A DNA stretch of 50,647 nucleotides from an uncultured Pseudomonadota bacterium (GCA_903910215.1 CAIVYV010000072.1:1-50647), one strand, 5' to 3'. Counted from the first letter of the stretch, positions 35,922 through 50,530 are shown. Translations and numbers: made by a program. The notes: generated from the sequence alone by a model not told the origin.

Positions 35922-35949
35922 TGTTGATACTCCCTGCTCGTCATTGACT

Positions 35950-36288
35950 TCAGGTGGCCGCCACGCCGGTTTCGCCCGTGCGTATGCGAATCGCCTGTTC
36001 GATCCCGGATACAAAAATGCGCCCATCACCCACCTTCCCGGTACGGGTCACGTTGGCGATCGCTTCGACCACCGGTTCGACGATGCTTTCGTCGACGGCG
36101 ATCTGCACTTGGATGCGTGAAACGAAATCCACCTGGTATTCGGCGGCGCGATAAATCTCGAGATGTCCGAGTTCGGCGCCATATCCGCGTACCTCTAGAA
36201 TCGTCATGCCTTGCACACCCAGCTGCGCGACAGCCAACTCGAGATCGTCCAACTTGAAGGGACGGATGATGGCGGTGATCATCTTCAT
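35950..36288 (-). CDS. glnK: P-II nitrogen regulatory protein (GlnK-type, divergent T-loop)
   Basis: 'MKMITAIIRPFKLDD', 'TGKVGDGRIFV' and 'IRIRTGE' are present. The length is 112 aa and the gene lies immediately upstream of amtB. Confidence 0.9.
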   Translation of the reverse strand: MKMITAIIRPFKLDDLELAVAQLGVQGMTILEVRGYGAELGHLEIYRAAEYQVDFVSRIQVQIAVDESIVEPVVEAIANVTRTGKVGDGRIFVSGIEQAIRIRTGETGVAAT

Positions 36289-36407
36289 CGCACGGACCAT
36301 CCCTTTGGCATCGAACGAATAACCGCTTCGTCACATTAAAAATGCGATTCGGCGTCCCGACCGTCGGCGCGGTATCCTTCGCATCGACGGCTCGATGGAC
36401 AGGGAAT

Positions 36408-36423
36408 TGCAGAATCCGTGCCA
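36408..36423 (-). promoter_or_regulatory. Sigma-54 (-24/-12) promoter candidate for glnK-amtB
   Basis: The minus strand reads TGGCACGGATTCTGCA, which fits the consensus TGGCACG-N4-TTGCA/T with one mismatch. It lies about 120 nt upstream of the glnK ATG. Confidence 0.6.
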
Positions 36424-36554
36424 CGCTGGATCACCGCCTGAGTGGTCGGTTTGTCGCGTCTTGGTGCAGATTCGACTGCTGTGCCGCACCGTTTTGGCAC
36501 CGGCGCATCCGGTGCTGCGTCATAAGAGGGCAGTAATGCCCGGAGAGTAATGTC

Positions 36555-36821
36555 ATGGACCAGAAAATCGACGACATCGTCAGACGCCTGCTCGGGTCAC
36601 TGCCGACTTCTCTACAGGACTCTGCTCAAGGACTTCGCCGGGACATCGAAGACAATTTCCGCGCCGTGCTGCAGGCTAATCTGACCAAGCTCGACTTGCT
36701 CTCGCGCGACGAATTCCTCGCTCAGGCGAAAGTGCTCGAGCGAACCCGAGCGCAGCTAGATGAACTGGAGCGGCGTCTTGCGGCATTGGAGGCAAGGTCG
36801 TCTGACACGCCGCGGGGATGA
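36555..36821 (+). CDS. ubiK: Ubiquinone biosynthesis accessory factor UbiK (YqiC/BMFP family)
   Basis: The 88-aa protein has a coiled-coil region: 'NLTKLDLLSRDEFLAQAKVLERTRAQLDELERRLAALE'. GGAGAG precedes the ATG. Confidence 0.75.
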   Translation: MDQKIDDIVRRLLGSLPTSLQDSAQGLRRDIEDNFRAVLQANLTKLDLLSRDEFLAQAKVLERTRAQLDELERRLAALEARSSDTPRG

Positions 36822-36827
36822 CCCGCT

Positions 36828-38357
36828 ATGAGCGTTGCCCGGGTAGCTTGCCGAGGGCAGGTGGGCTTGACGTCGCCGCCGGTGCAGATCGAGGTTTATC
36901 TCGGTAACGGGCTGCCCTGTTTTCACATCGTTGGTTTGCTCTCGACCGAAGTCAAAGAGAGTCGGGAGCGAGTCAGGGCGGCAATCAGTACGACGGGTTT
37001 CGAATTGCCCGCGGGTCGTATCACCGTCAATCTCGCGCCGGCTGATCTGCCTAAAGATGGCGGTCGATTCGATTTGGCCATAGCGCTTGGCATCCTTGCT
37101 GCCTCCGGTCAGTTGCGGCCCGCCCGCAGTCTCGAACGAATCGAATGTTTCGCCGAGCTCGGTTTGTCTGGGGAATTGCGCGCCGTTCGAGGCGCGCTAC
37201 CCGCGGCGGCGGCAGCGCAAGCGGCTGGTCATGAGGTGATCGTCGCGCGCGACAATGCCCCCGAGCTATGTCACTTGGTGGGAGCTCAGGTCGTGGTGGC
37301 GGGTACCTTGCAGGAAGTGTGCGATTACCTCGAAGGGCGTCGCGAGCTTACTCCGGCACGAGATAGCATTCCGTCCCGCGACGAATCGACTGTCGCATGG
37401 CCGATGGTTGCGTTGGCCGATGTTCGCGGCCAATCATTGGGCAAGCGAGCCCTCGAGGTTGCAGCCGCCGGGGAGCATAGCTTGCTGCTGATGGGTCCGC
37501 CGGGGTGCGGTAAGAGCATGCTCGCAGCGCGTCTGCCAGGGTTGCTCCCGCCACTGTCACCCGAAGAAGAGCTCGAGGTCGCGATGATCGCCTCGATCAC
37601 CGGCGGGCGTTCGCTCGTGAGTTCGCAAGGACGGGTATCTCGTCCGTTTCGCTCGCCGCATCATGGTGCGTCGGCGAGTGCGATCATCGGCGGTGGTGCT
37701 GCTGCTCGCGCAGGTGAAATCACGCTCGCGCATCGCGGCGTACTTTTCCTGGATGAGTTGCCGGAGTTCGATCGGCGCGTCCTTGAGGCACTGCGTGAGC
37801 CACTTGAGACTGGCCATGTGTCGATTGTTCGAGCCGAAGCCGCGGCTGAGTACCCCGCGAGATTCCAATTGATTGCAGCGATGAATCCGTGTCCTTGCGG
37901 ACAGCGCGGCGCAAGCCGTGGGCTTTGCCGCTGCTCCGAGTCGCAGATCGAGCGCTACGCCGCGCGATTATCCGGTCCGCTATTAGATCGAATCGACCTG
38001 CGTATCGCACTCGAGGCGGTCAGTGATGCCGACCTCAGTGATGACAGTCGTGCGCTGCGCGAGGCCGACGAGACGGCGATTCGATCCCGAATCCGCTGCG
38101 CACTAAGGCAGCAGCAAGATCGACAGGCTTGCTCGAATTCGAGACTCGAGGGTGCGCAACTGGCGGCCTTTGCCGAGCCTGACGCTGCGGGCCGTCGATT
38201 ACTCGCGGCGATGCGCAGCAAACTGGGGCTCAGCATGCGCGGTTACGATCGCACGTTACGCGTTGCACGAACCTTGGCTGACCTCGATCAAAAAAAATGC
38301 CTCGGCGAGGAGCATCTCGCCGAGGCATTTCAGCTGCGAAGATCTTTAGGGGCTTGA
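36828..38357 (+). CDS. comM: YifB/ComM family Mg-chelatase-like AAA+ ATPase
   Basis: The N-terminal Lon-protease-like domain contains 'ITVNLAPADLPKDGGRFDLAIALGILAAS'. The Walker A motif is 'GPPGCGKSMLA'. 'GVLFLDELPEF' and 'FQLIAAMNPCPCG' are also present. The length is 509 aa. Confidence 0.92.
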   Translation: MSVARVACRGQVGLTSPPVQIEVYLGNGLPCFHIVGLLSTEVKESRERVRAAISTTGFELPAGRITVNLAPADLPKDGGRFDLAIALGILAASGQLRPARSLERIECFAELGLSGELRAVRGALPAAAAAQAAGHEVIVARDNAPELCHLVGAQVVVAGTLQEVCDYLEGRRELTPARDSIPSRDESTVAWPMVALADVRGQSLGKRALEVAAAGEHSLLLMGPPGCGKSMLAARLPGLLPPLSPEEELEVAMIASITGGRSLVSSQGRVSRPFRSPHHGASASAIIGGGAAARAGEITLAHRGVLFLDELPEFDRRVLEALREPLETGHVSIVRAEAAAEYPARFQLIAAMNPCPCGQRGASRGLCRCSESQIERYAARLSGPLLDRIDLRIALEAVSDADLSDDSRALREADETAIRSRIRCALRQQQDRQACSNSRLEGAQLAAFAEPDAAGRRLLAAMRSKLGLSMRGYDRTLRVARTLADLDQKKCLGEEHLAEAFQLRRSLGA

Positions 38358-38361
38358 GCGC

Positions 38362-38868
38362 TTACTGCGCGAGCATGTGATCGACGGCGGCCTGAATCAG
38401 CTCATCCGATAGATCCGTACGTCCGCCTTTGGCGGGCATCACACCCGCTTTGCCCGTGTAGCCTTCGATCGCGTGTTTGTAGAGCGTCGCCTTACCTTGG
38501 GCGATACGCGGCGCCCAAACAGCCGCATCCCCGGTCTTCGGCGCACCAGCAATGCCGCCGGTGTGGCAAGCACCGCATACTTGCTCGTAGACGCCCGGGC
38601 CATCCGTGAGCACTGCCATGGCAGTGGTCATGGCACCGGCGCCTGGTGCGATCGCGAGGGCCGAGTTGTCGGCACCCGCGACGGCGACACGACCCGAAGT
38701 CAGATTGCGCTCGACGTCGGCCACATACTTGGGCTCAGTCAGTAGGTGCGCCTTCTGAGTGTTGTTGCCAACGACACGAGCCAAGGCAAACAAAACGATC
38801 GCAATCACGATCAGGATGCCGAGTACGAGACTGAAGATGTTGAAAAACTGGGAGTCCTGCTTGCTCAC
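38362..38868 (-). CDS. Membrane-anchored cytochrome c5-type monoheme cytochrome
   Basis: The N-terminal TM segment is 'FFNIFSLVLGILIVIAIVLFAL'. The heme motif 'CGACH' and 'GVMPAKGG' are present. The GTG start overlaps the upstream stop (GTGA). Confidence 0.8.
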   Translation of the reverse strand: MSKQDSQFFNIFSLVLGILIVIAIVLFALARVVGNNTQKAHLLTEPKYVADVERNLTSGRVAVAGADNSALAIAPGAGAMTTAMAVLTDGPGVYEQVCGACHTGGIAGAPKTGDAAVWAPRIAQGKATLYKHAIEGYTGKAGVMPAKGGRTDLSDELIQAAVDHMLAQ

Positions 38869-39569
38869 GTGTGTGTCCGGCGGGTGTTGAAAACCGCCGG
38901 ATTATAGCCGTTGGTCGGCAGCGGCTCCAACACTGACACCAGATTGCCGCTCTCGCGCATGCTCTCCCAGTCAGCCCGCCTGGCACTGTGGAGGCTCGCG
39001 GTCGGCATGATGGTTCGTAGCACCACTTCGCCGTACGCCGGGATATCGCCGGCGGCGAGGCCGTATTCCAGGGCAAACCAGGCATTACCGTGCCGATCCC
39101 AGGTTGGCCACTGGTCGGACGGGGCGCCGTCTGCCCACCCCACTTGCGCAATCAACAGGCGCACGACGTCGATCAAGGTCGTGATCAGCGTGTGGCCCTC
39201 GAACTTGAAGCCTTGGATGACGCGCTCGTAGAAGTGTGGTGTCGCCAACAGCGGGTAGTTCTGTACGTCAGTCGCGAGACCTCCGTCACGCCGCTGAACC
39301 GACTCGCCGCGCAATTGGTAGAGACCGGTAGCATTGAGCTCGCAATAAGCCCACATGGCGAGCTTCTTGGTTCGTTCGATCAGGACGACGCGCTCGGGGC
39401 CTAGGGTGGAAAACAAGGCCTCGTGGGTCGATCGGACCCGCGGCCCGAATCGATCCGGTTTGCGGGATAAACGGTAGGTCGCCAAGCGGCTTGCCACTCG
39501 CCGATCGGATTCGCGTCGCAGCCCGCGGGCATGCGTGTCGCTGATGGCAAATTGTGAATAATCGAGCAT
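38865..39569 (-). CDS. Hypothetical cytoplasmic protein (234 aa), no family recognised
   Basis: It has an ATG start and a long clean ORF. It is translationally coupled (GTGA) to the cytochrome c5 gene. It has no signal peptide or TM segment and a basic N-terminus. Confidence 0.5.
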   Translation of the reverse strand: MLDYSQFAISDTHARGLRRESDRRVASRLATYRLSRKPDRFGPRVRSTHEALFSTLGPERVVLIERTKKLAMWAYCELNATGLYQLRGESVQRRDGGLATDVQNYPLLATPHFYERVIQGFKFEGHTLITTLIDVVRLLIAQVGWADGAPSDQWPTWDRHGNAWFALEYGLAAGDIPAYGEVVLRTIMPTASLHSARRADWESMRESGNLVSVLEPLPTNGYNPAVFNTRRTHT

Positions 39570-39650
39570 GGACGCACCTTCCCCGAGAAAGGTAACGGCC
39601 GGTCGGCTCTTGGCGTGATCACGGGTTTCGTGACGCGCGTCACCGAATGT

Positions 39651-40133
39651 CTACTGACGTACGTTCACGGGTTTCGAATCGAGCGTCGCCGCTCGTTTTC
39701 GTAGTTGCTCTGTTTTGCGCTGCGCTTGAGCGAGCGTGTTGTAACGAGGATTCGGAACCGTAAAAGCCGTGTACGACAAATCATCGTGCCCGGGCACGGG
39801 TACCGCCCGTGTGCCGCTGATCGCGATGACAAGGCCGGTGTCATCATCGGTCACATCTCCCGATACGGTGCAGCGATACGTTTGCCCTGCAACGAGGTTT
39901 CCAAAATCGCAGGCTTTGACGGCACCGCCTGCCGCATTAGGCAACTCGATCGTTACCGCTCTGAAGGCGATACGCGGTTGCAAGCTAATAGTGGCCCGCA
40001 CCGGGTCGGCACTAGTGACAGAGATCGCAGCGCCAAGTTCCAATCCTTCGTCGATTTCGTGCGCTTGCGCAGTGTGCTGCACGATATTCATCATCGACAA
40101 CATGCAAAGGCCAAAGAAAAAGTGCGGCGTCAT
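39651..40133 (-). CDS. Small secreted beta-rich protein (160 aa), function unknown
   Basis: The ATG at 40133 is preceded by GAGG. The signal peptide is 'MTPHFFFGLCMLSMMNIVQHTAQA'. 'CDFGNLVAGQTYRCTVSGDVTDD' resembles bacterial Ig/DUF11-like repeats. It is the last gene of the sigma/TBDR/protease operon. Confidence 0.5.
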   Translation of the reverse strand: MTPHFFFGLCMLSMMNIVQHTAQAHEIDEGLELGAAISVTSADPVRATISLQPRIAFRAVTIELPNAAGGAVKACDFGNLVAGQTYRCTVSGDVTDDDTGLVIAISGTRAVPVPGHDDLSYTAFTVPNPRYNTLAQAQRKTEQLRKRAATLDSKPVNVRQ

Positions 40134-40146
40134 AGTGAGCCTCGGG

Positions 40147-42387
40147 TTAGGGCGTGGGTGTTGGCGCTGGTGCTGCTGTGATGGTGAAGCACTGTTCTGC
40201 AGGTGCGGTGTAGGTGGTCGCTGAGCACTCATTGCGGGTGGTTTCGGCGACGGAGCTCAGCACGACGCTGCACTCGCCGACCCATCCCCAACCGCCCTCG
40301 GATGGAACCACTTGATCCACGAAGATACTGCGCGCGCCTTTGGAATAACCGCCGGCGAGTGAGCCATTGGCCCTGGCGACGACAAACACCGGGATGGTGT
40401 TGCTAGGGGCGCTAATGGTGTATCGGCGCGTAGTTCCGTCACCATCGAATCTAAGATAACGACGATTCGATAGTTTGTTGTATTCGTTAGCGCTGCCAGC
40501 AGAACAAACAGTGACCGAGCCGTTTAACGGGATACGTGTGAATATCGGAAAAGTTTGAGTCGACGATCGATTTCCTAGAATCGATTCCGTGGAGCCCCAC
40601 TCGTCGTTGCCTGCGAGGGTGATATTGAGTGACGAGCCGACGGCATCGATGTTTCCTGCCAGAGCCGGATGCTGTTTCTTCAAGATGCCGGCGTAAGCCC
40701 AGATGTTGGGTCCGAAAGTACCGGTGCGCCAATCCTGCGAATAAAACGGCGCCAGAATTTGCGGGCCGGAGAGCTTGATTGATCCGGCTGGGTCGAACAG
40801 GCGCCAGATGAACTGGATCACCGTTCGCTCCTGAAACCAGCCGAGCGGCGTATCGTTACTGCGATAGTCACTGCGCACCGCGCGCACCGAGCCATCACGA
40901 AAGATAAAGCGATCGAGCGTGGGCGCCTTGGTGATCATCAAGGCTGTTCCCGTGGCGAATCCCTCATGTTGTACCAGCGCGATATCCTGATGTTCGCCCC
41001 GTTCGGAGTGGGGGCCACCGGGCGAATAGTTGCGCTGCGATTTATCCTGCGTGAAGTGCGTCATCTCGTGCGCTGTGATCGCCGTTGAGAGTTCCTGTAA
41101 CTCAAAGGCCGGGGCGCCGGATAGAAAAATATGCGGAATATTTTCGTTGCCGCCCGAGTTCACTCTGCCGTCTGCCGCGATCGTGATGGCGCCACGGGAA
41201 TAAAACGCACCTGAGCTACGTACGAAACCGCGATCGTAGTTGTTGTTATCGGTTGCGCCACCTTTGTTTTGCGCGCTCCAGAGTATCGAGACGCTATCGA
41301 CGGAATTCACCGCACCGTTTTGCGCGACGTAAGCTTGTTGCTCCATGGCATCGGCGAGGACGATGTAGGGTGCGGAGATACGCTGATCATCCCGTAGAAT
41401 TTTGAGTGTGGCATCCCACCCGAGTTTTGCCGTTAGTTCCGTAGCCTGTTTGAGTCGCTTAGGATCAGGCGTGTATTCAGCAGCACGATTAAGATAGGGC
41501 TCATAACGGGTGCGAATCGTGCTTGCCACGGTGGATACCGGACGCATGTTGTCGAGCACATGGATCTCGAAGCCACTGCTGTTCTTGCCGATCGACTTGA
41601 TGACCGGCATGTATCTTTTCTTCGGATCAAGACCCGTGAAGCGCACGCTTCCCGTATCGGATGCATACGTTCCGGCGACTTTATTGCCAGAGCCATCCTG
41701 CAGCTCGATATAGACGTTGCGAATGCCGGTAGTGATCGGGTTTTCCATGTCAGCTTCTAGGCGACCGGATGAATTGACCTTGCTTGGCCCCGGACGTTCA
41801 TATTTCGCCGTGACAAGCAGTTCGAACGTGTCGGCAACGGTAATCGTGACGCTGGAGGTGACGGCTGGATACGCCGGGTTAGAGCATTCGAGTGCGTAGG
41901 TAACGCTCTGCGTCAATGCTGGCGTAGTCAAAGTGCCGGAGGTCGCAATAGTGTCGGTGAAACCAGCTGTGCCGCGACAGCTTTTGATATTCGCTGCCGC
42001 CCAATCAACCTTGGCAGTGTTGCCGGCGAGCAGATCGGAGTCTGATGCCACCAGCGATAAAGTTGGCGCATTCCATCCGGTGACCGCCACGCTGCCGTTA
42101 GCGCTCCCGCCGCGACCAGTGCATGTCAGAGTAAAAGTCGATAATTCTTTGGTGATATTAACGGACTGATTTCCCGAGCTGGCGAAGGAGCCTGCCCAAT
42201 CACCTGCAGCCGTGCAGTTGTCAGCGTTGGTGGACGACCAGGTCAGTGTGACGGCCGCGCCAATGCGTGCGTCTGCTGTTGCCGCCGAGAAGGTGACGGT
42301 CGGCGCTGGCGGCGGACCGCCACCGCCGCCACAGCTGACGAGCAATCCGGCCAAGAAAATGACGATGATCGAGTACCACGCGCGCAT
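40147..42387 (-). CDS. Lipoprotein zinc metalloprotease (HExxH gluzincin-like) with two N-terminal Ig-like repeats
   Basis: The lipobox is 'LAGLLVSC' followed by a GGGGGPPPAP linker. Two ~85-aa Cys-paired repeats are present ('TLTWSSTNADNCTAAGDW...LTCTG' and 'KVDWAAANIKSCRGTAG...LECSN'). 'AHEMTHF' is followed 30 residues later by 'QHEGFATG'. Confidence 0.7.
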   Translation of the reverse strand: MRAWYSIIVIFLAGLLVSCGGGGGPPPAPTVTFSAATADARIGAAVTLTWSSTNADNCTAAGDWAGSFASSGNQSVNITKELSTFTLTCTGRGGSANGSVAVTGWNAPTLSLVASDSDLLAGNTAKVDWAAANIKSCRGTAGFTDTIATSGTLTTPALTQSVTYALECSNPAYPAVTSSVTITVADTFELLVTAKYERPGPSKVNSSGRLEADMENPITTGIRNVYIELQDGSGNKVAGTYASDTGSVRFTGLDPKKRYMPVIKSIGKNSSGFEIHVLDNMRPVSTVASTIRTRYEPYLNRAAEYTPDPKRLKQATELTAKLGWDATLKILRDDQRISAPYIVLADAMEQQAYVAQNGAVNSVDSVSILWSAQNKGGATDNNNYDRGFVRSSGAFYSRGAITIAADGRVNSGGNENIPHIFLSGAPAFELQELSTAITAHEMTHFTQDKSQRNYSPGGPHSERGEHQDIALVQHEGFATGTALMITKAPTLDRFIFRDGSVRAVRSDYRSNDTPLGWFQERTVIQFIWRLFDPAGSIKLSGPQILAPFYSQDWRTGTFGPNIWAYAGILKKQHPALAGNIDAVGSSLNITLAGNDEWGSTESILGNRSSTQTFPIFTRIPLNGSVTVCSAGSANEYNKLSNRRYLRFDGDGTTRRYTISAPSNTIPVFVVARANGSLAGGYSKGARSIFVDQVVPSEGGWGWVGECSVVLSSVAETTRNECSATTYTAPAEQCFTITAAPAPTPTP

Positions 42388-42434
42388 GACGTCACGATAC
42401 TGGACTTCTGTGCGCTATCAAACAGTCATCGCGT

Positions 42435-44753
42435 TTAAGGCAGGTTCCACACGACGCCGACATTGAGATATCTCGGCAGCCACGATTGGGTTCGGGTCTC
42501 GAGCCCCGTTGGCGCCATGCGCAGATCCGTGCAGCAAGGGTTGCTGCGGTTGGTGGCGTTGTTCACATCGAGCGCGATTTCCAGCAGCCCGATCTTGAGC
42601 GGCTTACGCCAGGAGGCACGGATATCGAGGTTCCATTGCGCTGGCCATCGGGCACGGTTGCGCTCACCTACCACCGGCAGCAGAGCGCCCGAATCGCCGA
42701 TCTGGAATTCGGTGCGACTCCAGCCGGTGCGCCACGAGCCTTGTCCTGAAAGGCTCCATGGGCCACTACGCCAAAGCAATCCGAGCAGCAGCGCATGCTG
42801 TTGGTTCCAGTTACGCGGTACGTCGCTCGTGCCGATATCGTCTTCGACTTCCGACCAAGCGTAATTCAGGAAGCCGGACCAGCTCTCATCCAGCGTATAG
42901 CGACCTGCAAATTCGACTCCGTAGGCGAGTGCGCCATCCGGTGCGATACGACGGCGGTCGATCTCCATCTCCGGAATGAGCGACACCGGGTTGAGCAAAT
43001 TTTCATATCGCGGTGCGGGGTCGTGGATTCGCTTACGGTATGCCTCGACTCGCCATGCTCCGTGGTCTGCCAGAAGTTGTTCGTAGCCGAGCACCCACTG
43101 ATCCGCTTTCTGCACCGGGTGGAAGCTCGTTTCACCATCGGCAACTTGCAGTTCATCGGCGCGTTGACCTTGGGATGTGCGGCCGGCACTGACTCGCAGG
43201 AATCGACCGTCGGCGAGCTCGTATTCCATAGCCAATCGAGGCGACCAGTCGATAGCATTGCTTGGTTGGTTGCGCTGATCAGCGCGAATGCCAAAATCGA
43301 GACGCCATGCCGACGAGAGTGTGATGAGCTTCGAGGCGTAAGCTGAGACCGAACGAGTCTCTGCATCGACGAGAATCCGTCGCTCAAGGTTAGGCGCGCG
43401 GTTGAAAGCAGTCGATAGTGACGAATCAAAGTTCGCTCGTATCGAGTGATCGTAACGAGTATTCAAGTTCAGTATTTCAGCGCCGATTGACCATGAACCT
43501 GGCCTCTGCCAAGCAAGGTCAAAATAATATCCGTCGGTTTGTCGATCCTCAGCAACCCGGCCGATGGATATCCGCTCGCCTGACCATTCACCGCGGCGAT
43601 CTGCGTGCGAGTCGAATTTGGCAAAGGCCAAAGCTAATCGATGATCGGTGGTCGTGTCGCGTGTCGCCTTGAGCCACAACGTATTGTCACGATAACCGGC
43701 GGTTGACCGCTCGCGATCTTTTCTCGAATCGTCGTTCTGATAATCGAGCTCATCCTGCAGGATCGAAAGCCCGGCCACCAAAGTCCAGTCATCGACAATA
43801 TGCTCTCCTCGGACGAGCAGGTCAGAAAACTCGACTTCGATATTGTCGATATCTACCGCACGCGCGACCCAGCCCGCGCTACTGCTTCTGCCGGCGACTA
43901 GCCAACGGCTTGGCGAGTCGTTGATCTGCGTTTTACCGACCGACATGGCGTGAGCGGCCAGTAATGACAGTCCGATCTCGTGGTGGTTTCCGTTATCGGT
44001 CCTGCGTGGCTGTATATCCATCACGGCGGAAAGACGGTCACCATGACGAACAGGGAAAACGCCGCTGAAAAAATCGAGTGTGTCGATCGTCGCGGGTTCG
44101 ATGCTACCTAGGATCGCTCCATAGTCTTTGAAATGAAATGGAGCGAGTTGTGGTATGCCATCGAAGCGCACAAGCATTTCATCGTCGCTGCCACCGCGCA
44201 CATGAGTTTTGGAGCTGAGCGGAGTGCTCGCGGTGCCAGGGAGCGTGCGCGTCACACGAAGCGCGTCCTCGTTGAGCCCCGCAAGATTCTCGATGTCAGC
44301 GCGGTCGAGCTGTGCAGTAGTCGTCAGCGGCGACTCGCTGGAGTAACGACTCGCATAAATAGCGATCTCCGCGAGCGGTTCGAGATCATAGGGGGAGTCC
44401 GTTGGTTTTGCCGGGTCTAGTGCGGGTAATCGGGTGACGACGAAGAGACCAGGACGAACATTGCGCAGGGTTAATCCATGATTCGCGAGTAAGCGTAGCG
44501 CCGTGTCGCGCGGATTATCGATGACCGAGTTTTGCGCGACTCTCAGTTCGGTGGTGACCAGTCGATCGCTGAACAAAATGGTGAAGTCGCGCGAGCGCAA
44601 TTGCTTCAGGGCGGTAGCCAAGCTCGTTCCGGATGGAATGAACGTGACCGGTGTCGAGGCGAGAGCGATGTGGGGGTGCAGGCCGAACGTCGATACGAGC
44701 AAAGACCAGATGAGCAAAGACCATATAACGGGCCGGAGTTTCACCTGGCGCAT
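42435..44753 (-). CDS. TonB-dependent receptor with an N-terminal STN signalling domain (FecA-type transducer)
   Basis: The ATG at 44753 gives a signal peptide. The STN domain reads 'LATALKQLRSRDFTILFSDRLV...GLFVVTR'. The TonB-box-like segment is 'LAEIAIYASRY'. A plug and a long beta-barrel follow. It lies directly downstream of fecR. Confidence 0.88.
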   Translation of the reverse strand: MRQVKLRPVIWSLLIWSLLVSTFGLHPHIALASTPVTFIPSGTSLATALKQLRSRDFTILFSDRLVTTELRVAQNSVIDNPRDTALRLLANHGLTLRNVRPGLFVVTRLPALDPAKPTDSPYDLEPLAEIAIYASRYSSESPLTTTAQLDRADIENLAGLNEDALRVTRTLPGTASTPLSSKTHVRGGSDDEMLVRFDGIPQLAPFHFKDYGAILGSIEPATIDTLDFFSGVFPVRHGDRLSAVMDIQPRRTDNGNHHEIGLSLLAAHAMSVGKTQINDSPSRWLVAGRSSSAGWVARAVDIDNIEVEFSDLLVRGEHIVDDWTLVAGLSILQDELDYQNDDSRKDRERSTAGYRDNTLWLKATRDTTTDHRLALAFAKFDSHADRRGEWSGERISIGRVAEDRQTDGYYFDLAWQRPGSWSIGAEILNLNTRYDHSIRANFDSSLSTAFNRAPNLERRILVDAETRSVSAYASKLITLSSAWRLDFGIRADQRNQPSNAIDWSPRLAMEYELADGRFLRVSAGRTSQGQRADELQVADGETSFHPVQKADQWVLGYEQLLADHGAWRVEAYRKRIHDPAPRYENLLNPVSLIPEMEIDRRRIAPDGALAYGVEFAGRYTLDESWSGFLNYAWSEVEDDIGTSDVPRNWNQQHALLLGLLWRSGPWSLSGQGSWRTGWSRTEFQIGDSGALLPVVGERNRARWPAQWNLDIRASWRKPLKIGLLEIALDVNNATNRSNPCCTDLRMAPTGLETRTQSWLPRYLNVGVVWNLP

Positions 44754-44776
44754 TATAAAGATATCAGGACCGATGC

Positions 44777-45730
44777 TTACGGCTTGCTGATAAGGACCTC
44801 TCCGTCGCGACGCGACACGTCGAGTTCGACGGCGACCGCGATTGCCGCGAGCGCATCGTCGGGTGTAAGACCGGTGACGCTCCCATTCAAGCGGATATCC
44901 GGGTCGGCATTCTGCAAGGTGACGCGGTGACCGGTTTCTCGCTCGTACCACGCGAGGAACGTTCCGAGGCTGACGCCATCAATATCGATAGGTGAGGGGA
45001 CTGTTTCGATCCAGCTCCAGCGTTCATCAGTGGCCGAAACGCTCGTGCGTTCGATGGCTTGAGGGTTCGCTACGGTTACGGATAATTGCTCGCCCGCCGC
45101 GGCCGTTGCGAGCGAACGGCGCTCTTCGGGTTTCTGCAGGGCGATCACGCCTTCACGAACCGAGACATGGAGCCGTTCTTGATCGTAGTCGACTAGATAC
45201 TGAGTGCCGAGGTGTTGGATATCACCTAGAGCAGTTTTGACCAGTAAAGTGTTGTTATGCGTGGAGGGGTTCGAGTCGACAAAAATTCGACCCTTGTTGA
45301 GTCGGAGATGACTCTCGTCGCTGAATATCAGTTCGGAATCGGGCGCCGCTCGAACGACGAGACCAGATGCCAGTCGCATCGATAGCGTGGCAGCACCCGT
45401 GTTGATCGTTTGTTCGTTGTAGATGGGCTCGTCGTTATGGAAAGACTCGTCGCCGTGCACCCCCGATATCGTGGCGATCTGCATGCGAGGCGCTTCGGCG
45501 TTTCTTGAAACCCAAAACAATACGCCGGAGAACAGAACGAGCAATACGCTTGCTGCAGTGGCGAACATCCAGCGACGCTTTGGGGTGCGAGTAGTGGCCG
45601 GTTGTTGCTCTGCCAGACCTGCTTTCCACTCGGTGCGAATGCGCTCAAACGCAGCCTCGCGACGATCCGTTGGAATGCGAGGCGCATCCCGCAAAGGGCG
45701 CAGCGCTTTCTGGATCTCTTCGTCGTTCAT
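44777..45730 (-). CDS. FecR-family transmembrane anti-sigma factor / sensor
   Basis: It has a short cytoplasmic N-terminus, one TM segment ('WMFATAASVLLVLFSGVLFWV'), a periplasmic FecR domain and a C-terminal STN-like domain ('LGTFLAWYERETGHRVTL'). Confidence 0.85.
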   Translation of the reverse strand: MNDEEIQKALRPLRDAPRIPTDRREAAFERIRTEWKAGLAEQQPATTRTPKRRWMFATAASVLLVLFSGVLFWVSRNAEAPRMQIATISGVHGDESFHNDEPIYNEQTINTGAATLSMRLASGLVVRAAPDSELIFSDESHLRLNKGRIFVDSNPSTHNNTLLVKTALGDIQHLGTQYLVDYDQERLHVSVREGVIALQKPEERRSLATAAAGEQLSVTVANPQAIERTSVSATDERWSWIETVPSPIDIDGVSLGTFLAWYERETGHRVTLQNADPDIRLNGSVTGLTPDDALAAIAVAVELDVSRRDGEVLISKP

Positions 45731-45733
45731 GCC

Positions 45734-46318
45734 CTAGACCTCAAAGCCCGCGGTGTTCGCAGCGGACTTGAACGCCACGCGTGCGCGCTGCAGGCTCGAT
45801 TGAGCGGCATCGTGCGAGACGCCGAGTTTCAATGCGATTTCCTCTGTCGAGAGATCATCGAGATATTTCCACCGTAGCACCTCACCGTAACGGCCCGGCA
45901 GTTGCCGAAGTATCGTATCGATTTGTTCCGTTCGCTCTGCCGAGGCCGTCTGTTCTTCAGGTTCATGCTGCAGGTCGGCGGCATGTTGTTGCGCGGCGCG
46001 TTGTCCCGAAGGATCTGAATCGAGACTGACTTGCCGTGCGGCATCTCGATTCGAGATCTCGAGCAGATCAGCAAGCTCGTTGCGACAGATGCCTGCGAGC
46101 CATGAGAACAGGCTCGACTCACCGCGGAAACCATCGAGCTTTCGAACGGCACGACAGAGCGCCCGCTGCGCCGCCTCTTCGGCAAGGCTGGGCTTGTCGC
46201 GCACCCTCGAGAGGGCGAAGCGGTAAAGGCGATCGAAATACTCATCGAAAAACTCCTTGAAGGCGAGTTCATCACCCGCCAGGAGCCGCTCCACCTGTTT
46301 TTGATCCGAGTTCGACAT
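45734..46318 (-). CDS. ECF-type RNA polymerase sigma factor
   Basis: Region 2 reads 'LLAGDELAFKEFFDEYFDRLYRFAL' and region 4 reads 'LRWKYLDDLSTEEIALKLGVSHDAAQSSLQRAR'. I prefer the ATG at 46318 over the track's GTG at 46387. Confidence 0.88.
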   Translation of the reverse strand: MSNSDQKQVERLLAGDELAFKEFFDEYFDRLYRFALSRVRDKPSLAEEAAQRALCRAVRKLDGFRGESSLFSWLAGICRNELADLLEISNRDAARQVSLDSDPSGQRAAQQHAADLQHEPEEQTASAERTEQIDTILRQLPGRYGEVLRWKYLDDLSTEEIALKLGVSHDAAQSSLQRARVAFKSAANTAGFEV

Positions 46319-46401
46319 TGCGGCTCGGGAGGTTAGACGGCCCGGGGCACTCGGATCAATCGCGGCGATGGATTTCGGGCCGCCCACCTGTCTAACCGGT
46401 C

Positions 46402-46983
46402 ATGAGTGCCATCACTACGCGAATTCTTAAGCAGGGAGCCGGAGCGCCGTTGCGAGGCCGATACGAGCGTCTCATTCGTTCACGGTATGCGCTCGCTCAC
46501 GGTGCCGAGCTTCAGGACTTCATGCCAAATCTACTCGGTTGCGTCGGGGCAGAGGATCAACCGCTCGCGGTCCTCGGTTATCAGAGTGCCGCGGCTGGCT
46601 CCTTATTCCTCGAACAGTATCTCGATTCACCCATCGATCAGATGCTACTGGGTAGGGGTGATGCAGTCGGTTCTGCAGCAAGGCTAGATCGTCACAGAAT
46701 TGTTGAGGTCGGCAACTTTGCCAGTCGAGATCGGGTGGCTACGATGGAATTACTGCAGCAACTGCCGAGCTTTCTCGCCCGGGAAGGGTTCGAATGGCTG
46801 GTTTTCACCGGCACACCGCGAGTATGTGCACTGGTCGCGGGCTTCGGTGCGCCGCTGCTTGATCTCGGCAGAGCAGACCCTGCGAGGCTGCAAAGCGGTG
46901 CCGCCCGTTGGGGCCGTTATTATGAGAGCACCCCGCGCGTCATGGCGGGTTGGCTGGGTCATTGCGCGCAGGTGGCCGCGTGA
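46402..46983 (+). CDS. 'Thermostable hemolysin' family protein (GNAT-fold acyltransferase-like)
   Basis: The 193-aa protein contains 'RYERLIRSRYALAHGAELQDFMPNLLG...LFLEQYLDSPIDQ...EVGNFAS', which matches my recollection of the T_hemolysin family. This was not verified by a search. Confidence 0.6.
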   Translation: MSAITTRILKQGAGAPLRGRYERLIRSRYALAHGAELQDFMPNLLGCVGAEDQPLAVLGYQSAAAGSLFLEQYLDSPIDQMLLGRGDAVGSAARLDRHRIVEVGNFASRDRVATMELLQQLPSFLAREGFEWLVFTGTPRVCALVAGFGAPLLDLGRADPARLQSGAARWGRYYESTPRVMAGWLGHCAQVAA

Positions 46984-48428
46984 GCGTCGCGTTTCAAGAT
47001 GCACGGGGCACGCTCACGAGCGATGAACTGGTCGATACAGAGGCGCAAGCATCAGCATGGGTGGCGAAAACGCCAGATGCATCGGTGCGCTACGGGCTCT
47101 TTGCCGACAACGGCATCGCCTGGGCGATCGTCGATCGTGCCTTGCATCGCAGCTCTTTCGTCAATGTACCGCTGCCCCGTCACTTCAGTGAGTCGCAACT
47201 GGCCCACGTGGTTGAAGACGCCGCTCTTGATCGAGTCATCACGGATGATCCCGACAAGCTAAATCATCTTCCCGGTGATTGGCGTCGGCTCGACGATGAA
47301 TTCCTGGGGCTGCAGTGCTGGGCGCGATCAATTGCATCGCAGCAAAGTCGATTGCTACCGCCTGCGACCTCCAAGATTACCTACACCTCGGGCAGCACCG
47401 GAAATCCGAAAGGCGTTTGCTTGTCGCGTGCAGCAATGGACTCGGTCGTGAATTCGTTGGTCGGTGTGTTGCGACCACTTGCCGTGCGTCGCCATCTGTC
47501 TCTCCTCCCGTTGTCGACTTTGCTCGATAACCTCGTGAGTGTTCAGGTCGCGCCGGCGCTCGGTGCTACGGTTTTGCTGCCGTCCTTGGGTGAAACCGGC
47601 ATCGGCTATGGTGGAATCGACATCCAGCGAATGTTGTCTTGTATTGATCGTTATTCGCCTGAAAGTCTTTTGTTGGTTCCAGAGTTATTGCGAGTGCTGG
47701 TGGCGTCAGTCACAAAAGGCTGGCGTGCACCAACTAATCTCAAGTTCATCGCCGTCGGAGGAGCGTCTGTTTCTCCGGAGCTCTTGACGGCGGCCCATGC
47801 CGTCGGATTGCCCGCTTACGAAGGCTACGGCCTGAGTGAGTGCGCCTCCGTGGTGGCGTTGAACTCGCCCGCTGCCGCGCACAAGGGCAGTGTGGGGCGC
47901 GTTCTACCGCATGCCCGGATTCGAATCGACGCGGCCGGTGAGATTCACGTCCGTGGCGCGACGATGTCAGGCTACCTCGGAAACGACGATCACGCGCAAG
48001 ATGAGGTGGCTACGGGTGATCTCGGCTTTATCGATGCAGACGGCTTTCTGCATGTACGCGGTCGAAGAAAGAATCTACTGATCACGAGTCTTGGTCGCAA
48101 TGTGTCACCGGAGTGGGTCGAGCGAGAGCTGCTCGCGAGTGGGTACATTGGTCAAGCTGTAGTCTTCGGTGAAGCAAAGCCATTTTTATCCTGTTTGATT
48201 TATCCGAGCAGTCCAATGGTCACTGCGGCAGAGCTTGGCGCAGCGATCGACGCTGCAAATCGCCGACTACCGGACTACGCCCAAGTCCGGCGCTGGGCTT
48301 TGCTACCTCAACCGCTACGCCTTGCGGATGGAACCGTGACTTCCAATGGCCGAACCCGTCGCGACGTGGTGTTTTCGCGCCACCAAAATTTGATTGAGGA
48401 TTTATATGTCGATGCTATCGCCAGTTGA
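46980..48428 (+). CDS. AMP-dependent synthetase/ligase (ANL superfamily)
   Basis: 'TYTSGSTGNPKGV', 'GYGLSEC' and 'TGDLGFIDADGFLHVRGRRKNLL' are present. The GTG at 46980 overlaps the upstream stop (GTGA). The track's TTG at 46950 is an alternative start. Confidence 0.88.
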   Translation: MSVAFQDARGTLTSDELVDTEAQASAWVAKTPDASVRYGLFADNGIAWAIVDRALHRSSFVNVPLPRHFSESQLAHVVEDAALDRVITDDPDKLNHLPGDWRRLDDEFLGLQCWARSIASQQSRLLPPATSKITYTSGSTGNPKGVCLSRAAMDSVVNSLVGVLRPLAVRRHLSLLPLSTLLDNLVSVQVAPALGATVLLPSLGETGIGYGGIDIQRMLSCIDRYSPESLLLVPELLRVLVASVTKGWRAPTNLKFIAVGGASVSPELLTAAHAVGLPAYEGYGLSECASVVALNSPAAAHKGSVGRVLPHARIRIDAAGEIHVRGATMSGYLGNDDHAQDEVATGDLGFIDADGFLHVRGRRKNLLITSLGRNVSPEWVERELLASGYIGQAVVFGEAKPFLSCLIYPSSPMVTAAELGAAIDAANRRLPDYAQVRRWALLPQPLRLADGTVTSNGRTRRDVVFSRHQNLIEDLYVDAIAS

Positions 48429-49080
48429 TGCCTACGGCCGTCTTGCCGACTCCACTCAAAATTCACGAGGTTACTTATTGTCGGCGCCCGTCATCAGACG
48501 AGCCTTGGCAGGTGATGTGACGCGAGACCTTTACGTAGCGTTTCTGACGCAGGCGTATCACCACGTCAAACACACCGTTCCTCTACTCATGGCGGTGGGT
48601 AGTCGGCTCGATGATTCCAAAGATTGGTTGCGCTCAGAGCTGGTTCATTATGTCGAAGAAGAACATGGTCATGAGCAGTGGATCCTGAACGACATCGCCG
48701 CTGCAGGCGGTGATGCAGAGCGCGTGAGACGTTCGAAGCCGCATGTCGAAACGGATGCGATGGTGGCTTATGCCTATGACGTTGCTATGCGACGCAACAC
48801 TGTCGGCTTTTTCGGGATGGTGTTCGTTCTGGAGGGAACGAGTGTTGCGTTGGCTCTCGATGCCGCGAGCCGCATTCAGTCAGCTCTTGAGTTGCCGGAT
48901 CGCGCGTTCAGTTACCTGCGTAGTCACGGCAAGCTGGATCAGGAGCATACACAGCATCTGGCGGGGATCGTCAATCGACTTGATGCCCCATCTGATCACA
49001 TGGCGATCGTCGATTGTGCCAATGCCATGTTCTGGCTCTACGGCAATGTGTTCCGCAGTTTGGAACGAGTGGCCGTATGA
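48406..49080 (+). CDS. Heme-oxygenase-like diiron oxidase/oxygenase (iron-containing redox enzyme family)
   Basis: The protein is all-helical. The ligand pattern comprises 'YVEEEHGHEQW' (ExxH), 'VLEGTS' (E) and 'SHGKLDQEHTQH' (H-x3-D-x2-H). The start overlaps the 3' end of the ligase gene. Confidence 0.7.
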   Translation: MSMLSPVDAYGRLADSTQNSRGYLLSAPVIRRALAGDVTRDLYVAFLTQAYHHVKHTVPLLMAVGSRLDDSKDWLRSELVHYVEEEHGHEQWILNDIAAAGGDAERVRRSKPHVETDAMVAYAYDVAMRRNTVGFFGMVFVLEGTSVALALDAASRIQSALELPDRAFSYLRSHGKLDQEHTQHLAGIVNRLDAPSDHMAIVDCANAMFWLYGNVFRSLERVAV

Positions 49081-49877
49081 GTTCGCCGATTAGGGCGTTG
49101 GTCACCGGCGGTGGCAGCGGGATCGGCGCTGCGATCGCTCGACGATTAGTCGATGAGGGCGCCCGGGTGCTGATCACCGGTCGTGATACTTCAAAACTGC
49201 AAGCAATTGCGTCCGAGGCACCGCAGCAGATCGGCATTCTCGTGGCAGATCTCACGATCGATGCGGACCGAAAGCGAGTCGCCGAATATGCTAGCCACTG
49301 GGATCACGTCGGAATCGATACTCTCATCAACAACGCTGGTACTGGTGGCGCTGGATTTCTGGAGGATTCGAATCCGGCGCAGATCGACGCAGTGCTGCAG
49401 ACCAATCTCATTGCTCCAATCTGCTTGACGCAAGCGTTGCTTGTACATCTGAAGTCGCTGCCAGAGGCACGCATCATCAATATCGGCTCGGTATTTGGCT
49501 ACATCGGCTATCCGTCGCAGGCAGTTTATTCGGCTAGTAAGTTCGGACTACGCGGATTTTCAGAAGCCTTACATCGCGAGCTTGCCGGTACTCGTATCAG
49601 CGTGCAGCATGTTGCGCCGCGGGCGACGCGCACCACCTTAAATTCCAACGCGATGGACGAACTCAATCGCGAGCTCGGCAATCGTATTGATGATCCGGAT
49701 CAAGTGGCGCAAGTGGTGGTCGCCGGCTTGTCGACGCGACGTACCAACAAGGTAATCGGTTGGCCCGAGGCGCTATTCGCAAGGGTCAATGCCGTTCTGC
49801 CATCGCTGGTAGACGGTGCATTAGTAAAACAGCTGCCGGTCATTCGGCGATTCATTCAACGAGGCAATCCATCATGA
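49077..49877 (+). CDS. Short-chain dehydrogenase/reductase
   Basis: 'ALVTGGGSGIGAAIA', 'NNAG' and 'YSASKFGLRGF' (YxxxK) are present. ATGA overlaps occur at both ends. Confidence 0.9.
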   Translation: MSSPIRALVTGGGSGIGAAIARRLVDEGARVLITGRDTSKLQAIASEAPQQIGILVADLTIDADRKRVAEYASHWDHVGIDTLINNAGTGGAGFLEDSNPAQIDAVLQTNLIAPICLTQALLVHLKSLPEARIINIGSVFGYIGYPSQAVYSASKFGLRGFSEALHRELAGTRISVQHVAPRATRTTLNSNAMDELNRELGNRIDDPDQVAQVVVAGLSTRRTNKVIGWPEALFARVNAVLPSLVDGALVKQLPVIRRFIQRGNPS

Positions 49878-50530
49878 AGACTAGTCTTGGGCGCAAAATT
49901 TTCGCGGCGTTGTTGCTACTGGCGGCCGTAGCCCCCGTCGGCGCGGCATCGTTGGATGCGGACTTACTCAACATTCAGCAGACATGGGCCCGCATCAACT
50001 ATTCGACAGCGCCTGCCGACCAAAAAGCGACGGAGTTCGGGCAGTTGGCTACCAAGGCAGCGGCGTTGGCTGCGAGTCAGCCAGGGCGCGCCGAGCCGAT
50101 GGTATGGCACGGCATTGCTCTGTCGAGTCAAGCCGGTGCTAAAGGAGGTCTGGGGGCACTATCGCTGGCGAAGCAAGCACGCGGTGTGTTGGAGTCGTCA
50201 CTGAAGATCGATGCCACGGCGCTCTCCGGTTCGGCTCACACCAGTCTTGGCACTCTGTACCATAAGGTGCCCGGATTCCCCGTCGGATTCGGTGACGATA
50301 AGAAAGCGCGTAAGCATCTCGAGACCGCGCTGAAACTGAACCCCGCCGGTATCGATCCCAATTTTTTCTACGCCGAGTTCCTGCTTGATAAGGGCGAGAC
50401 GGCGCTGGCGATCAAACACTTGAAGATCGCGCAGGCAGCGACGTCACGACCCGGTCGCGAGACGGCAGACGCAGGCCGCCGCCAAGAAATCGCAGCGCTG
50501 CTTGGGAAAGTCGGTTCCGCAGGTCGCTAA
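49874..50530 (+). CDS. Secreted helical-repeat (TPR-like) protein
   Basis: The signal peptide is 'MKTSLGRKIFAALLLLAAVAPVGA'. The helical repeats include 'ARKHLETALKLNPAGIDPNFFYAEFLLDKGETALAIKHLKIA'. Confidence 0.55.
   Translation: MKTSLGRKIFAALLLLAAVAPVGAASLDADLLNIQQTWARINYSTAPADQKATEFGQLATKAAALAASQPGRAEPMVWHGIALSSQAGAKGGLGALSLAKQARGVLESSLKIDATALSGSAHTSLGTLYHKVPGFPVGFGDDKKARKHLETALKLNPAGIDPNFFYAEFLLDKGETALAIKHLKIAQAATSRPGRETADAGRRQEIAALLGKVGSAGR

Follow-up and report, generated by a model that had tools for sequence, protein, structure and literature searches.

Does a cell-surface-signalling (CSS) gene set that directly precedes a lipoprotein protease gene form one dedicated protease-sensing system with it, or do two separate units simply lie side by side? 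The question is raised by a stretch of 50,647 nt from an uncultured Pseudomonadota bacterium (GCA_903910215.1 CAIVYV010000072.1:1-50647; hereafter the window), in which five minus-strand genes at positions 39651-46318, read from the open-reading-frame list and the junction sequence, are separated by gaps of 3, 23, 47 and 13 nt. In order of transcription they encode an extracytoplasmic-function (ECF) sigma factor, an anti-sigma factor resembling FecR, a TonB-dependent receptor (TBDR), a 746-residue lipoprotein with the motifs HEMTH and HEGFA, and a 160-residue protein with a signal peptide (Table 1). An earlier note on this DNA had described the same five co-oriented genes. Its description holds: the gaps were reproduced exactly from the junctions, the domains and order of the sigma and anti-sigma genes directly upstream of the receptor were confirmed with Pfam and NCBIfam, and both downstream products are seen in the sequence. 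The open-reading-frame list and Pfam agree with the note that the operon lacks genes for iron-chelate or siderophore synthesis, heme, periplasmic binding proteins and ABC import. The note went further and proposed a dedicated signalling architecture with a protease as cargo. Here, we argue instead that the locus consists of two independently inherited modules side by side, in a lineage-specific arrangement, and is not a dedicated protease-sensing system; we put the probability of this reading at roughly 0.6. The first module is the sigma-FecR-receptor trio, and the second is a cassette of the lipoprotein gene and the small gene.

The two parts of the locus are distributed differently among their relatives. 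A tally with a receptor profile covered 79 metagenome loci (designated by L numbers; L095 is the window's own contig), and its denominators count only loci with sufficient flanking sequence. Sigma and FecR genes stand beside the receptor gene in 7/7 loci with a receptor identity of at least 66%, in 4/4 at 60-65% and in 35/36 below 60% (46/47 in total). The lipoprotein gene lies downstream of the receptor in nine of ten loci at an identity of at least 66%, in neither of the two at 60-65% and in none of the 48 below 60% (9/60 in total). Receptor relatives at 66, 62, 41 and 38% identity illustrate the pattern, each keeping sigma and FecR without the cassette. The synteny check that the earlier note had suggested thus gave a five-gene unit limited to one close clade, with the lipoprotein in 0/50 loci elsewhere. 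From the side of the cassette, no sigma, FecR or TBDR gene adjoins the lipoprotein relatives at 57% (L087), 50% (L088), 48% (L089) and 36% identity (L004), and the same is true of L007 (Steroidobacter gossypii, lipoprotein 26%) and the more distant L094. Judged by these neighbourhoods, the trio is a deeply conserved unit, and the lipoprotein gene and its small neighbour form a cassette that stands by itself and turns up in many contexts. The genome matches are metagenome-assembled genomes (MAGs) of Steroidobacteraceae, which places the host among the gammaproteobacteria, and within the loci compared the five-gene combination is confined to one genus-level, freshwater lineage of that family.

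Natural variants within the close clade show three states: both modules, the cassette only (L008 and L010) and the trio only (L105). In L010, whose lipoprotein is 90% identical, a clean deletion of ~7.4 kb runs from an SDR gene through the TBDR gene, taking the SDR, heme-oxygenase-like, AMP-ligase, T_hemolysin, sigma and FecR genes and almost the whole receptor gene; at the junction (L010:9009-10010) a TPR-like gene is joined to the receptor gene's final ~65 nt, followed by the spacer and the lipoprotein gene. L008 (lipoprotein 92% identical) retains two 3' remnants of the receptor gene beside unrelated housekeeping genes (L008:9744-10000), and the right-hand breakpoints of L008 and L010 agree within 3 nt, at window position ~42495. 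L105 (receptor 85% identical) lacks exactly window positions 39646-42434. There, the receptor stop codon is immediately succeeded by a GGTGACGCG-GTCAC hairpin. The window has this hairpin after the small gene, and the GGTGACGCGCGTCAC hairpin there has a folding energy of -19.1 kcal/mol with a modest z of -1.9. Since the hairpin directly follows the receptor stop in L105, the cassette lies between the receptor stop and the end of the trio's transcription unit. Close relatives, as far as these junctions tell, have lost either module independently. The dedicated architecture of the earlier note is not borne out, as the cassette occurs without the trio, and the trio without the cassette in 50/50 distant loci and in L105.

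The most direct coupling of the two modules would be one in which the protease releases a peptide or a metal-bound fragment that the receptor both imports and senses, the five genes forming a single protein-utilisation system. The co-orientation and tight spacing of the genes, a spacer without a terminator, the position of the cassette ahead of the hairpin that closes off the trio in L105 and the retention of the cassette in 9/10 loci of the clade are all consistent with this idea, as are the TonB-dependent transporter (TBDT) loci with surface lipoprotein proteases that exist in Bacteroides (PMC11658791). Unrelated peptidases also recur beside distant members of the receptor family: a secreted PD40/Peptidase_S9 gene is found near the receptor in 17-18 distant loci (L129, L135, L143, L147, L093 and others), downstream of it on the opposite strand and, in several loci, directly convergent on its 3' end. 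L090 (66% identity) likewise has an S9 gene of this kind close to the receptor. Nevertheless, the protease is absent from all 50 receptor loci outside the one clade and from L105 inside it, the protease and small-gene pair is found in many genomes without an adjacent TBDR, L008 and L010 hold the cassette after losing the trio, and the locus contains no inner-membrane peptide transporter. We regard a ligand-generating protease, which the earlier note had offered as one possibility, as very unlikely, because the receptor family does without the protease almost everywhere.

A second form of coupling is regulatory, and it has to be weighed against the promoter-like elements of the locus. Within the 83 bp that separate the sigma gene from the T_hemolysin gene are two back-to-back motifs of the form CGATkGAT-N~13-(C/T)GTCTAA, one per direction. 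These mirrored motifs are kept down to loci with 62-66% receptor identity, and the sigma-side motif recurs upstream of the sigma gene at 41 and 38%. The -10-like element is 14 nt from the ATG at the sigma gene and 6 nt at the T_hemolysin gene, so that the transcripts would have short leaders and be leaderless or nearly so. Taken together, the two motifs resemble an ECF-type promoter under autoregulation and its counterpart for the divergent operon; a Fur-box scan of this promoter region was negative (best match 11/19). The 47-nt spacer between the receptor and lipoprotein genes contains TTGATA-N16-TATCGT, which ends 7 nt before the lipoprotein ATG, and neither a terminator in the spacer nor a Shine-Dalgarno sequence before the lipoprotein gene was found. 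This element is kept in all cassette-bearing close relatives, including the trio-less L008 and L010, and is absent upstream of distant lipoprotein homologues. The cassette is probably transcribed both by read-through and from this conserved promoter-like element of its own, and since it lies ahead of the trio's closing hairpin, co-transcription with the trio, with the protease as an output, is plausible.

Whether that output is a dedicated one is another matter. The protease pair might be a selected member of the sigma regulon, with a sigma-dependent promoter in the 47-nt spacer: the spacer sequence TTGAT-N16-GTAT resembles the conserved sigma-side TTGAT-N16-GTCT, the lipoprotein gene has no Shine-Dalgarno sequence and its ATG is abutted by the -10-like element, and the leaders of the sigma and T_hemolysin genes are likewise very short. 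However, L008 and L010, which no longer have the adjacent sigma gene, preserve the spacer motif perfectly, the motif also fits the sigma-70 consensus at 9/12 positions, its -10 part differs from that of the sigma-side motif, and the shared promoter pattern, seen six times in the window against 0.94 expected, was defined post hoc. We consider a dedicated output unlikely. The suggestion in the earlier note that the protease is the output of the cascade survives in its weaker form, that of co-transcription, whereas a dedicated sigma-dependent output depends on motif likeness.

The trio itself has the parts expected of a CSS system. The sigma factor carries Sigma70_r2 (PF04542), Sigma70_r4_2 (PF08281) and Sigma70_ECF (PF07638) in Pfam and matches TIGR02937 with 88 bits; its best NCBIfam matches are generic or SigW/RpoE-type, and none of the top 25 matches listed is a FecI model, such as would point to the FecI-like clade (ECF239-243). 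The anti-sigma factor has a FecR domain (PF04773, 41 bits against a cut-off of 24; NCBIfam FecR model PRK09774, E = 4.6e-7, residues 118-299), arranged as a short cytoplasmic N-terminus, a single transmembrane helix (~residues 54-74), the periplasmic FecR domain and a C-terminal domain. A single-pass anti-sigma factor with a periplasmic FecR domain thus adjoins the sigma factor, as in CSS systems. The receptor (772 residues) is built of a signal peptide, an STN-fold domain, the TonB-box-like sequence EIAIYAS, a plug and a barrel. Its barrel is recognized by Pfam with 72 bits, which makes it a TBDR in the sense of a CSS system, and its Plug match of 17 bits lies under the cut-off of 23.9; the closest TBDTs in the PDB are only weak matches to it. 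In the domain search proposed by the earlier note, Sigma70_r2/r4, FecR and the barrel were accordingly found, with Plug below cut-off here and matched in 22/23 family members. EIAIYAS occupies residues 129-135 and has the family form EVxVYASRY; its likeness to a TonB box was judged by eye, from general knowledge.

The N-terminal signalling domain of the receptor was less straightforward. The earlier note had stated that it is an STN domain, and sequence models do not bear this out: Pfam STN (PF07660) gave no match on the receptor even at E = 10 and matched one of 23 receptor relatives (E = 0.17), and a profile of the N-terminal domain found no STN chain among PDB sequences. Owing to this negative result, the structure of receptor residues 30-115 was predicted with AlphaFold2. 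The model (predicted local distance difference test, pLDDT, 83) has a beta-alpha-beta / beta-alpha-beta-beta topology, and the top ten Foldseek matches in the PDB are all TBDR signalling domains (probability 1.00, E from 3e-3 to 2e-2), with FecA (1zzv; TM 0.68/0.72) first, followed by PupB, FoxA and FpvA, and with secretin N0 domains ranked behind them. The domain is conserved throughout the family alignment, and a profile alignment to the N-terminus of E. coli FecA has the right register, though with a weak E-value of 0.016 and a probability of 2.8%. On the strength of the fold model, we accept the receptor N-terminus as an STN-fold signalling domain of highly divergent sequence. The first three genes show a full CSS anatomy, yet the sequence-level STN test failed and the top NCBIfam matches of the sigma factor include none of FecI type.

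By analogy with known transducers, the trio would work like a CSS system. The ligand of its receptor is probably not iron. The earlier note had allowed that the locus might prove to be a recognized iron-carrier system, and neither a Fur box nor iron-uptake genes were found in it. Its statement that characterized CSS systems sense only iron carriers is incomplete, since FecR-regulated ECF groups linked to carbohydrate scavenging (PMC7826278) and TBDT loci with proteases (PMC11658791) have been described. In Proteobacteria, a non-iron CSS system beside a protease is unusual without being a new category; our literature search on protease-linked CSS found nothing specific.

A receptor of this kind could also work in the outward direction, serving the TonB-dependent secretion or surface exposure of the protease, as Oar does for PopC in Myxococcus. 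There is a precedent for such export, mentioned in a passage of PMC11658791 that cites Gomez-Santos 2019, and distant receptor relatives have CarboxypepD_reg N-terminal domains (P0185-P0193) and OMP_b-brl_4 barrels. The window receptor, however, lacks the Oar-type CarboxypepD_reg domain and has the STN-fold signalling domain in its place, the protease is a lipoprotein for which the Lol pathway would be expected, and the cassette occurs without any receptor in most genomes. We find this explanation hardly credible.

Divergent from the sigma gene lies an operon of five genes, which encode a T_hemolysin-family protein (PF12261, E = 1.7e-49), an AMP-dependent ligase, a Haem_oxygenas_2 diiron-type enzyme, an SDR protein and a secreted TPR-like protein of 218 residues. 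It stands beside the trio in 6/6 loci at a receptor identity of at least 66% and in 2/2 at 60-65%, adjoining sigma in all eight, plus L142 at 37% (9/39 in total). Within the clade of at least 60% receptor identity, this gene order makes the operon a steadier neighbour of the trio than the cassette is, and its gene content looks like a small-molecule pathway. PDB sequence searches with the T_hemolysin and heme-oxygenase-like proteins returned only a structural-genomics TENA/THI-4 protein, and a literature search on the T_hemolysin, AMP-ligase and heme-oxygenase-like gene set found nothing specific.

This operon suggests a further explanation, in which it makes a small chelator or signal that is taken up and sensed by the receptor, as pyoverdine is with FpvA-FpvR-PvdS, the cassette being a bystander. 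Such a metallophore-type system would account for the divergent position of the operon in all 8 loci whose receptor is at least 60% identical and also in L142 at 37%, for the promoter motif common to both directions and for the joint deletion of operon and trio in L010. It is opposed by the lack of a Fur box, of a non-ribosomal peptide synthetase (NRPS) or NRPS-independent siderophore synthetase, and of a periplasmic binding protein and ABC importer, by the lack of literature on the gene set, and by the absence of the operon from 30/31 distant trio loci. We take it to be quite unlikely.

The lipoprotein of the second module has a lipobox LVSC ending at Cys19 (MRAWYSIIVIFLAGLLVS-C19), and this Cys and the poly-Gly run are kept in the family alignment, as in a bacterial lipoprotein. 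HEMTH covers residues 440-444 and HEGFA residues 474-478, with a His-to-Glu spacing of 31 residues, and 19 homologues with identities down to 26% show no variation at H440, E441, H444, H460, D468, E475 and G476. The arrangement of clan MA(E) gluzincins is an HExxH motif plus a downstream Glu. The structure prediction that the earlier note had suggested for the protease agrees with it: the AlphaFold2 model (pLDDT 86.7) places HExxH on helix 435-450 and E475 on helix 469-486. Apart from the mixed alpha/beta catalytic domain, the model has two Ig-like domains, a CarboxypepD_reg-like sandwich and a C-terminal beta-sandwich, and a PPC-like sandwich is seen at the C-terminus of relatives. The putative zinc ligands would be H440, H444 and E475.

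No curated peptidase model in Pfam or NCBIfam (M4, M36, M1 and others) matches the lipoprotein. Relatives give sub-threshold Pfam matches at the active site, with Peptidase_M4 in 3/19 and Peptidase_M36 in 2/40. The NCBIfam 'M36 family metallopeptidase' matches of distant relatives are strong, but their alignments cover PKD-like regions rather than the catalytic domain, and they were set aside. A Foldseek search of the full model against the PDB was dominated by Ig, fibronectin and macroglobulin matches and was uninformative for the catalytic domain, and PDB profile searches with full-length and catalytic-domain alignments gave only spurious matches to Protein L and CodY. A profile of the catalytic domain found 2691 cluster representatives (50% identity clusters, E up to 1e-3) among 1.84 billion proteins, and all members looked up are annotated as 'hypothetical'. 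Together, the invariant residues and the model make it very probable that the lipoprotein is a zinc metallopeptidase; it would be a zinc endopeptidase from a large family that lacks a curated model. Genes for APH-family kinases recur beside distant cassettes (L007, L094, L088 and L087), with NTP_transf_3 too in L087; this recurrence may be simply inherited synteny.

The small protein has a signal peptide with predicted cleavage at AQA|HEIDEG and two invariant Cys residues. In all 25 loci that have a full-length lipoprotein homologue of at least 35% identity and sequence beyond it, the next gene downstream is a homologue of the small gene; most of these loci have no receptor nearby. Pfam gave no match on the protein, and its family of 51 clusters is wholly unannotated. 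An hhalign comparison of this family with the 200-residue products of genes downstream of the most distant lipoproteins found no homology (probability 0.6%). The mature N-terminus HEIDEG is kept in relatives down to ~40% identity, and its His down to ~30% (L089). On the evidence of gene order, the lipoprotein thus has an obligate partner in the small protein. The latter may, speculatively, chaperone or guard the enzyme in the manner of periplasmic inhibitors of secreted metalloproteases, and a role as an N-terminal plug-type protease inhibitor is conceivable.

Taken as two modules, the locus could operate as follows. In the first module, the receptor would bind its ligand and pass a signal, by way of the STN domain, to the anti-sigma factor's periplasmic part, as in FecIRA and FpvAIR; the anti-sigma factor would be inactivated and the sigma factor released, and the latter would drive its own operon and the divergent T_hemolysin operon through the mirrored TkGAT-N16-GTCTAA motifs. 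The second module would be an outer-membrane-anchored, thermolysin/fungalysin-like gluzincin with its small secreted partner. Transcription of the cassette, which lies between the receptor stop and the trio-ending hairpin, could come from read-through as well as from its own element, and the juxtaposition probably gives co-expression.

Several observations weigh against this picture. The first is the retention of the cassette behind the receptor in 9/10 loci, which could mean selection for coupling rather than shared ancestry. The second is the recurrence of PD40/S9 peptidases, which could hint at a peptide-related role of the receptor. The promoters are a third: the sigma dependence of every one is read from motif conservation only, and the -10 element is GTATCG in the spacer against GTCTAA on the sigma side, so that the likeness lies in the -35 part only. 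Furthermore, the T_hemolysin operon stands beside the trio in just 1/31 loci below 60% receptor identity, and the assignment of the lipoprotein to a gluzincin family is weak because Ig-like domains dominated the Foldseek search, which was made with the full model.

Comparison with known systems shows what is shared and what is not. The trio resembles FecI-FecR-FecA of E. coli in its ECF sigma factor, its single-pass FecR anti-sigma factor and a TBDR whose N-terminal signalling domain precedes a TonB-box-like sequence, and the FecA signalling domain is the best fold match of the receptor N-terminus. Nevertheless, the sequence similarity is negligible (BLASTP of the receptor against FecA, E = 0.065), the trio here is in one orientation, there is no fecBCDE-type importer and no Fur box, and the best NCBIfam matches of the sigma factor are not FecI-type. 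FpvA/FpvR/PvdS-FpvI of Pseudomonas likewise combines a TBDR transducer, whose domain is also among the Foldseek matches, with a sigma factor, which here may control a biosynthetic-looking neighbour operon; that operon differs in having no NRPS or known siderophore enzymes and no sign of iron regulation, and its link to the trio is drawn from synteny and the shared motif only. The Bacteroidetes ECF240, anti-sigma and SusC-like loci share non-iron FecR-type signalling by a TBDT, with a surface-lipoprotein hydrolase alongside (PMC7826278; PMC11658791). In contrast to them, the present locus has a gammaproteobacterial host, its hydrolase belongs to a mobile cassette and is no conserved component, and it lacks a SusD-like partner (Pfam found no SusD/RagB domain in the five proteins or their neighbours). 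The lipoprotein is similar to thermolysin (M4) and fungalysin (M36) in its HExxH helix and in an invariant Glu on the next helix within an EG(F/W) motif, but it matches no curated model at threshold and has a lipoprotein anchor, N-terminal Ig-like and CarboxypepD_reg-like domains and a small partner gene. Oar-PopC of Myxococcus xanthus also has a TBDT gene near a protease gene, and Oar-like N-terminal domains occur on distant relatives of our receptor; the STN domain, the sigma and anti-sigma partners, the lipoprotein nature of the protease and the unconserved association set the present locus apart.

One more possibility is that, in this lineage, the regulon of a non-iron TonB-dependent transducer has taken in the protease cassette. 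A surface-anchored gluzincin would then free peptides that the receptor imports and, through its highly divergent STN domain, reports to the sigma factor, and the locus would be the equivalent, in a gammaproteobacterium, of a Bacteroidetes utilisation locus. We hold this to be distinctly unlikely; if it were true, the trio-only and cassette-only variants would be snapshots of the assembly of such a system.

Table 1. Positions of the features of the locus in the window.
Feature	Position	Strand	Description and basis
ECF sigma factor	45734..46318	-	194 aa, ATG at 46318; Pfam, NCBIfam
FecR-like anti-sigma factor	44777..45730	-	317 aa; PF04773, PRK09774
TonB-dependent receptor (TBDR)	42435..44753	-	772 aa; barrel match in Pfam
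STN-fold signalling domain of the TBDR	44424..44657	-	residues ~33-110; accepted from AlphaFold2 and Foldseek
Outer-membrane lipoprotein, gluzincin-like	40147..42387	-	746 aa; predicted from invariant residues and AlphaFold2
Small secreted protein	39651..40133	-	160 aa; conserved downstream partner of the lipoprotein
Cassette as presence/absence unit	39646..42434	-	47-nt spacer, lipoprotein gene, 13 nt, small gene; segment absent in L105
Promoter-like element in the receptor-lipoprotein spacer	42397..42421	-	TTGATA-N16-TATCGT
GGTGACGCGCGTCAC hairpin after the small gene	39620..39646	-	same hairpin after the receptor stop in L105
Back-to-back divergent promoter-like motifs	46335..46393	both directions	toward the sigma gene and toward the T_hemolysin gene
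Divergent five-gene operon	46402..50530	+	T_hemolysin-family, AMP-dependent ligase, Haem_oxygenas_2, SDR, TPR-like; Pfam

Other genes accompany the trio in its relatives. A gene for a Sulfatase-family (LtaS/EptA-like) membrane protein is found near it in 23 distant loci (L114, L115, L117, L133, L142, L172 and others), in several of which it separates the sigma and FecR genes from the receptor gene, sharing the strand of sigma, with the receptor transcribed divergently. The clade of the window has EptA and PAP2 genes just past the T_hemolysin operon (L001). These neighbours hint that envelope-lipid modification may be part of the regulon. On the other side of the locus, positions 34581-38357 hold housekeeping genes (glnK-amtB, a BMFP/UbiK-like gene and a ComM/Mg-chelatase-like gene). 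Next to them, a minus-strand gene for a 234-residue protein (38865-39569) overlaps a minus-strand cytochrome c gene (38362-38868) by 4 nt; the protein has no Pfam or NCBIfam match and is 93-96% identical in relatives, above the conservation of all five operon genes. The GC content is flat over the window (0.56-0.61), with no compositional trace of recent foreign DNA near the cassette. One further record, L014 (CAMCBU010000002.1), is titled 'MAG: Klebsiella pneumoniae' and carries a Steroidobacteraceae-type locus with 90% identity and full synteny; this MAG is probably mislabelled or contaminated.

If the two modules are indeed inherited independently, the locus would caution against inferring function from tight gene spacing, since three configurations occur in one genus-level clade, and the natural deletion variants would be ready-made controls for any coupling between protease and signalling. 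It also offers three leads. The first is the widespread occurrence of deeply divergent sigma, FecR and STN-fold receptor trios, probably non-iron, in Steroidobacteraceae-like bacteria. The second is a predicted lipoprotein gluzincin family of ~2,700 unannotated clusters, with a partner gene in the branch of the window protein (at least 35% identity). The third is the T_hemolysin operon, a candidate for control by the sigma factor, which may make the molecule that the trio senses.

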